From the IMG/VR virus record IMGVR_UViG_3300033072_000473, positions 23,212 to 87,211 of that record: a stretch of 64,000 nt of DNA. One strand, written 5' to 3'. The DNA comes from a virus. Its lineage: Duplodnaviria; Caudoviricetes. The notes under the pieces are model-generated. The model saw only the letters and a program-made list of their open reading frames with translations, had not been told where the DNA came from and ran no database searches. Of the stretch, positions 35,812-36,132 are shown piece by piece; within the stretch, counting starts at the first letter, position 1; every line of letters starts with the position of its first letter. The position numbers were made by a program, and so were the translations under genes.

Positions 35812-36132
35812 TGGTACCCGTGGCCGGAATCGAACCGGCATGCTTGCGCGAGGGATTTTAAGCGGTTATGTCCTAAAGTTTCCTAAAGGCCCGGACTATC
35901 TCTTTACCTTCAACACTACTTGTTAAGGTAGTGGGCGTTCTTGCTGGTTATTAAGAGGGCTAAACCTCTCCAGTAGTCTCTACACCTTCCAATACTGTAG
36001 TATTGGCTTGGCTCGCGATTGCCATTTTACAGACTCTCCCGAATTAACCCACAGTTTATCTAACTATTTCTAATTAGAGGGGACTATCAGTTTCTGCTGA
36101 TCCCTTGTGTCTTCCTATTTCACCACACGGGC
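35812..36132 (-). tRNA. tRNA-Leu(UAA) interrupted by a group I intron
   Basis: Exon 1 GCCCGTG...AGGGA(T); exon 2 CTTAAAATCCCT...ACCA. Confidence 0.88.
35863..36099 (-). mobile_element. Group I intron (~237 nt, no ORF)
   Basis: P7 elements GAGACUAC / GAUAGUCC, P1 GGGAU/GUCCC with U-G pair, P9 GAAA hairpin, terminal AUAACCG. Confidence 0.88.

Follow-up and report, generated by a model that had tools for sequence, protein, structure and literature searches.

Which 5′ splice site does a group I intron use when the near-universal U-G rule would leave its tRNA with eight nucleotides in the anticodon loop? We address this question for a tRNA-Leu(UAA) gene in a 64,000-nt stretch of viral DNA (the window), which has a GC content of 37%, comes from an IMG/VR virus record of 87 kb, and carries an array of about 25 tRNA genes plus a two-piece tmRNA of betaproteobacterial type. 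From comparative sequence evidence we infer that an ORF-less group I intron, lying between A31 and C32 of this gene, probably splices itself out with a cut after A31 and leaves a normal tRNA.

Layout of the gene and fold of the intron

The tRNA-Leu(UAA) gene lies on the minus strand at 36132-35812 and is interrupted by a 238-nt group I intron without an ORF (36100-35863). On the minus strand, its junctions read ...ACACAAGGGA-U(36100)-CAGCAG...ACAUAACCG(35863)-CUUAAAAUCCCU, or, in the letters next to the intron, ...AAGGGA-U(36100)-CAGCAG...AACCG(35863)-CUUAAAAUCCCU. The 5′ exon (36132-36101, positions 1-31) ends with the anticodon-stem strand AGGGA, whose last base is A31 (36101). The 3′ exon (35862-35812) contains the entire 7-nt loop from C32 onward (C32 followed by UUAAAA), then UCCCU, the long variable arm, the T arm, the acceptor strand and an encoded CCA. 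ARAGORN does not call the unsplit gene, and it identifies the joined exons as an 83-nt tRNA-Leu(taa). The Rfam model RF00028 matches the minus strand at 36099-35872 with 59.6 bits (E = 1e-12), above its gathering score of 50, which bears out the group I intron that a preliminary description had proposed for this gene. The same description had called the insertion position unusual, and position 31/32 does differ from the classical site between U34 and A35.

By scanning IMG/VR, JGI metagenomes and GTDB genomes with sequence patterns, we collected 30 distinct intron-bearing genes from phages and metagenomes, and six further copies from bacterial assemblies: Curvibacter microcysteis RS43, C. cyanobacteriorum HBC61, and Burkholderiales and betaproteobacterial MAGs. 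Several of the junction patterns had fixed exon letters, so the conservation of AGGGA and CUUAAAA in those matches is circular; intron-based patterns were run as a check and recovered copies with other anticodon stems. The intron copy of Curvibacter scores 46.8 bits with RF00028, which is under the gathering score, yet it is clearly homologous. One relative (L004) is an independent assembly of a near-identical phage, with an intron core 97% identical to that of the window and the same junction bases.

The alignment of the 30 sequences supports the fold. Pairing occupies 91.9% of the cells of the P1-P9 model, compared with 35-45% in controls with slid partners. Changes on both sides are found in 45 of the 69 pairs, and none of 500 shuffles reaches the observed covariation score. 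The P3-P9 core, including the P3/P7 pseudoknot, is upheld by covariation, with the terminal pair of P7 changing from G-C to C-G in 7 of the 30 sequences, and all eight pairs of the P2 hairpin (36078-36059, GAAA loop) change on both sides. We conclude from these sequence comparisons that the predicted fold is real and that selection acts on it. The 5′ strand of P3 (36052-36047) opens a stretch that reaches 35985 and includes the P4-P5-P6-P6a domain. It is followed by the 5′ strand of P7 (35980-35974) and an extra hairpin, P7.1/P7.1a (35973-35944), ahead of the 3′ strand of P3 (35936-35931), P8 (35929-35906) and the 3′ strand of P7 (35898-35893), all of these helices being supported by the alignment. 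The intron closes with P9.0 and P9, both of which covary: the 5′ strand of P9.0 is GG (35892-35891), the P9 hairpin occupies 35889-35872, and the 3′ strand of P9.0, CC (35865-35864), directly precedes the omega G (35863).

Two local features of the fold stand out. In every one of the 30 family members, the fifth pair of P4, which adjoins J4/5 (36039/36016; column pair 78/113), has G opposite G and is unpaired, whereas it is Watson-Crick in canonical U-G relatives (L007, L008, the introns L068 and L069 of crAss-like phages, and the seed sequences of Williams). This non-pair may have evolved together with the unusual 5′ splice site, as an adaptation to it, or may merely reflect shared ancestry. 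Separately, the 8-mer GAUAGUCC occurs twice on the minus strand of the intron, in the P1 guide region (36088-36081) and across the 3′ strand of P7 (35900-35893); the guide-region copy could compete for the 5′ strand of P7 during folding.

The two splice sites

The 3′ splice site is fixed by P9.0. Its 3′ strand consists of the two bases ahead of the last G and its partners are the two bases just after P7, and across the relatives this helix covaries in four Watson-Crick combinations: GG/CC, GU/AC, AU/AU and AA/UU. The terminal G before C32, which the preliminary description had seen directly ahead of CUUAAAA, is invariant in the relatives, even though the pattern used on the metagenomes left that base free. 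Together, the covariation and the invariant G show that the 3′ exon begins at C32 and supplies all seven loop bases, CUUAAAA.

The 5′ splice site lies in P1, where the guide sequence UCCC (36083-36080) pairs with G28-A31 (36104-36101). The register of this pairing follows from covariation. Three relatives (L037, L039 and L041) have the exon stem ACGGA and with it the guide UCCG instead of the UCCC of the window, a change from G28:C to C28:G at column pair 6/34, so that guide U36083 is opposite A31 and G36084 faces the base that follows. In the window this base is U36100, and GGGAU is able to pair with GUCCC (36084-36080), with U36100/G36084 as a U-G pair. The preliminary description had taken G36084 as the wobble G of P1. 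The pair can indeed form in the minimum-energy hairpin (-8.3 kcal/mol), but an alternative without it, with U36100 paired to an A and G36084 left free, is only 0.2 kcal/mol worse.

The family does not conserve this U-G pair. Of the 30 distinct sequences from phages and metagenomes, 14 have G directly after A31, nine have A, seven have U and none has C; five of the six bacterial copies have U and one has G. This base has changed at least nine times on the tree of intron cores, and the U type is not a clade. The two bases just 5′ of the guide (A36085 and G36084 in the window) are AG in 20 of the 30 sequences, CG in 9 and AA in 1. G36084 is left unpaired by 26 of the 30 P1 folds of minimum energy, while the base after A31 is paired to the 5′ neighbour of that G (U-A, or G-C for the most frequent G type), is paired to a base further along, or has no partner either; only this window and three relatives have a minimum-energy P1 with the U-G pair. 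The variable base and the mostly unpaired G together speak against conservation of the pair, and we regard U36100 as most likely the first base of the intron rather than the last base of the exon.

At the site that restores the tRNA, A(-1) is paired with U, so the U-G pair of the group I class is missing there. This is a departure from a near-universal trait of the class and not from the group I fold. A purine at -1 in a Watson-Crick pair contravenes the U-G rule and counts against a cut after A31. In its favour, the variable base next to A31 and the intronless alleles described below support the non-canonical splice-site choice that the preliminary description had raised. The base after A31 is never C among the 36 sequences, which may suggest that G36084 must avoid Watson-Crick pairing, as a cleavage-site G would.

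The sequence AG-UCCC around the guide is exactly complementary to the ligated junction GGGA/CU (the slash marks the junction), corresponding to P1 plus a 2-bp P10. We propose from this complementarity that G36084 and A36085 could form such a P10 with C32-U33; its partners never vary, so the pairing is beyond the reach of covariation. With a cut after U36100, no P10 is possible. The distance from the cut-site pair of P1 to P2 cannot separate the two registers, since it ranges from 4 to 8 nt in canonical relatives (the seeds of Williams and L007).

Splice products and alternative explanations

When the exons are joined as A31/C32, ARAGORN reports tRNA-Leu(taa), whereas joining U36100 to C32 gives AGGGA-UCUUAAAA-UCCCU, which ARAGORN reports as 'tRNA-???'. 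The canonical register thus leads to an 8-nt loop, as the preliminary description had stated. Natural intronless alleles have the shorter loop: genes reading AAGGGA-CTTAAAA-TCCCT, with a 7-nt loop, are found on at least 119 IMG/VR contigs. A scan for an 8-nt-loop tRNA gene, which was less specific, gave only two matches, both inside protein-coding sequence. The identity between the A31/C32-joined exons and intronless phage genes reaches 96.7% across the U, G and A types, and the inserted element at the DNA level is therefore N...G, beginning with the variable base and ending with the terminal G.

We propose the following course of splicing. Exogenous G would attack the bond after A31 (36101), which would be held in an ordinary A-U pair with the guide, and U36100 would be the first base of the intron and receive the added G. 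G36084 would act in the first step as an unpaired base adjoining the cut site, and in the second step it might, with A36085, form P10 with C32-U33. The terminal G (35863) would then be followed by C32, and ligation would produce exons reading GGGACUUAAAA, with the stem and loop AGGGA-CUUAAAA-UCCCU of a normal tRNA that would read UUA and UUG.

Alternatively, the intron may be cut after U36100 at the U-G pair, yielding, as the main product or a sizeable by-product, a tRNA-Leu with the 8-nt loop UCUUAAAA that might be a +1 frameshift suppressor or an odd decoder. The ligated exons would then be GGGAUCUUAAAA, with the added G on C36099. We consider this unlikely. In its favour, the U36100-G36084 pair is part of the minimum-energy fold in the window, the base is never C in 36 sequences, and the related case BcISt1 (discussed below) forms some circles from which the initial base of the intron is missing. 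The A-rich J4/5 also looks like that of canonical introns, though this does not discriminate between the registers. Set against these points are the G or A found at this base in two thirds of the family, the lack of any 8-nt-loop gene beside the at least 119 genes with 7-nt loops, the loss of P10 in this register, and the fact that BcISt1 splices ahead of its U. The needs of the cell and the phage count against this cut as well. All 47 tRNA hits of C. microcysteis RS43 were located, and those with a long arm are Leu CAG (two copies), CAA, GAG and UAG, four Ser and one Tyr; thus, this free-living bacterium has no tRNA-Leu(UAA) gene other than the split one. Among the leucine codons of the window, TTA is commonest (31%) and CTA second (30%), matching the two tRNA-Leu genes of the phage, so a frameshifting decoder for TTA would be costly. 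For the expanded-anticodon or +1 frameshift tRNA of the preliminary description, the variation among U, G and A after A31, the want of an 8-nt-loop gene, the intronless 7-nt loops and the role of the gene as sole UUA decoder of a free-living bacterium are all unfavourable.

The two sites may also not exclude each other. The canonical site could be a competitor in the window and the three relatives whose minimum-energy P1 forms the U-G pair. A more far-reaching version, to which we give little credence, is that in this phage and the Curvibacter chromosomes, the U-type members, both the A31 and the U-G sites are used, so that a minor tRNA-Leu with the loop UCUUAAAA might be made beside the normal one and cause programmed +1 frameshifting at a low level, or affect decoding at UUA in some other way.

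It is similarly improbable that the intron no longer splices, or requires a protein, and that the phage gene is a dead or decaying tRNA. The site yielding a proper tRNA lacks a canonical U-G pair and ARAGORN makes no call, as would be expected of such a gene; however, covariation is strong over the whole ribozyme, the tRNA exons are intact in more than 30 diverged copies, Curvibacter has this gene as its sole tRNA-Leu(UAA) gene, and the phage gene encodes its CCA and is located inside an array of intact tRNAs.

Very little speaks for a cut after U36100 combined with a 3′ cut after C35862, which the preliminary description had offered as another way to a 7-nt loop. The resulting loop, UUUAAAA, is presumably identical to that of E. 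coli leuZ, but an intron ending in C is excluded by the P9.0 covariation and the invariant G, which anchor the terminal G at 35863. Such a cut would also place G or A at position 32 in relatives, and the intronless alleles carry C32. A one-base assembly error as the source of the apparent extra nucleotide can be dismissed, since the independent assembly L004 has the same junction bases and 35 other copies from separate assemblies, more than 30 of them diverged relatives and some of them isolate genomes, keep one base between A31 and the extension of P1.

Known introns and genomic context

The closest parallel for a cut after A31 is BcISt1, a group B IStron of Bacillus cereus ATCC 10987, which splices after the G of AGGG and leaves the following U, for which a pair with the guide G is predicted, at the start of the intron (Tourasse, Stabell, Kolsto 2014, PMC4227781). 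This site was shown experimentally by sequencing of ligated exons and intron circles (PMC4227781), and group B IStrons insert after AGGG-type sites, with the U followed by an internal loop (PMC4227781). The intron of the window resembles BcISt1 in that its 5′ exon would end in a P1-paired purine (AGGG/U in BcISt1, AGGGA/U in the window) with the U next to an internal loop. It differs in that the U is not conserved, two thirds of the tRNA-Leu family having G or A and hence no U-G pair available. Furthermore, IStrons, at about 1.9 kb, contain transposase ORFs of the IS607 type, whereas the window intron has 238 nt, no ORF and a tRNA as its host gene; a phage search turned up no DNA similarity to Clostridium phage IStrons. 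BcISt1 also yields circles from which the initial U of the intron is missing (PMC4227781). The bond that follows this U may therefore be reactive, and by analogy a minor cut after U36100 may occur in the window intron. A non-U 5′ splice site one base before a U-G pair is thus already known from group B IStrons.

Our literature searches on phage tRNA-Leu group I introns and non-U 5′ splice sites directly gave only Williams 2020 (bioRxiv 10.1101/2020.01.27.920355). According to the text of that paper, U(-1) and a terminal G are found in 98.5% of raw tRNA-intron calls, and the sole non-U(-1) class named in it, among 21 tRNA settings, is Leu.3Cg (bioRxiv 10.1101/2020.01.27.920355); a class 'Leu.0Ag' is not named in the text (bioRxiv 10.1101/2020.01.27.920355). 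As that text presents it, Leu.3Cg shares the non-U(-1) with the window intron but has a pyrimidine paired with the guide G, where the window has A(-1) paired with U. The classical cyanobacterial and plastid Leu.3Ug (Williams 2020) is likewise a group I intron of the same tRNA species with a guide complementary to the ligated junction: its guide UU-GAG matches CUU/AA, in parallel to AG-UCCC and GGGA/CU here. However, Leu.3Ug is listed as subgroup IC3, is inserted between U34 and A35, has a U(-1)-G wobble and lacks P7.1, unlike the window intron with its site at 31/32 and its P7.1 hairpin (35973-35944). In Williams' seed alignment, several bacterial tRNA introns have a hairpin of the P7.1 type, which the classical cyanobacterial Leu intron lacks; the window intron resembles these P7.1-bearing bacterial tRNA introns and phage introns rather than Leu.3Ug. 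Leu.1Ug (Williams 2020) is similar to it in three ways, being in tRNA-Leu, only one position away (32/33), and having a P7.1-type insert, but it has a canonical U(-1) and needs U32, whereas the 3′ exon of the window gives C32 and a cut after U36100 would leave eight loop bases. In the Anabaena circular-RNA paper, guide changes that preserve base pairs keep activity, a weakly supporting observation because the pairs tried at the cut site are unspecified.

The +1 frameshift-suppressor tRNAs of the sufD and sufJ type have 8-nt anticodon loops. Here, only the hypothetical canonical product would have such a loop, and its extra base would be 5′ of C32, neither in nor beside the anticodon.

The U-G rule underlies annotation tools as well as ribozyme designs for RNA circularisation and trans-splicing. 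A whole natural family, with more than 35 copies in phages and Burkholderiales chromosomes, appears to choose its 5′ splice site without the U-G pair, and in two thirds of the copies no U-G pair is possible at or beside the cut. Blind use of the rule leads to the prediction of a spurious tRNA with an 8-nt loop, and the usual tRNA finders overlook the gene entirely. Since the only tRNA gene that decodes UUA in cultured Curvibacter strains belongs to the family, the question is accessible to ordinary RNA work. In the Curvibacter chromosomes (L055:1094-1342 and L054:725-1322), the intron-bearing tRNA-Leu(UAA) gene lies just downstream of a tandem tRNA-Gly(GCC) array, which is an ordinary chromosomal tRNA context and not a prophage-like one.

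We also examined related introns and the surroundings of the gene. Another phage tRNA-Leu(UAA) is interrupted at 25/26, outside the anticodon loop, by an intron of this lineage whose P7-P7.1 region is nearly identical (L007:8059-8409, minus strand). This intron has a canonical U-G pair (GACAU/...GAUG/AGCGGA, with slashes at the splice sites), and ARAGORN reports its joined exons as tRNA-Leu(taa). Two crAss-like phages, cr118_1 and cr55_1 (L068:300-560 and L069:300-560), have related group I introns, again with a canonical U-G pair, after the T-loop-like GGTTCGAnT. These parallel the intron-bearing tmRNA genes of Williams 2020, and the annotation of the records at these sites is limited to hypothetical or HNH proteins.

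A free-standing ORF of 254 aa, endonuclease VII/HNH-like, lies on the minus strand at 36898-36134 and ends 2 nt before the tRNA. It matches PHROG phrog_1035 (E = 4e-22) and has no match in Pfam. Among 40 intron loci, only L004 has a homologue of this ORF beside the intron, so it is not a general partner of the intron family. The tmRNA of the window, two-piece (permuted) and of betaproteobacterial type, is at 35502-35142 on the minus strand (RF01850, 144 bits; RF04321, 140 bits); together with the Burkholderiales intron copies, it suggests that the host of the phage is betaproteobacterial. Two over-long tRNA matches on the minus strand, one of 115 nt (30540-30426) and a 92-nt tRNA-Ile(tat) (38875-38784), suggest further inserts in tRNA genes of the array.
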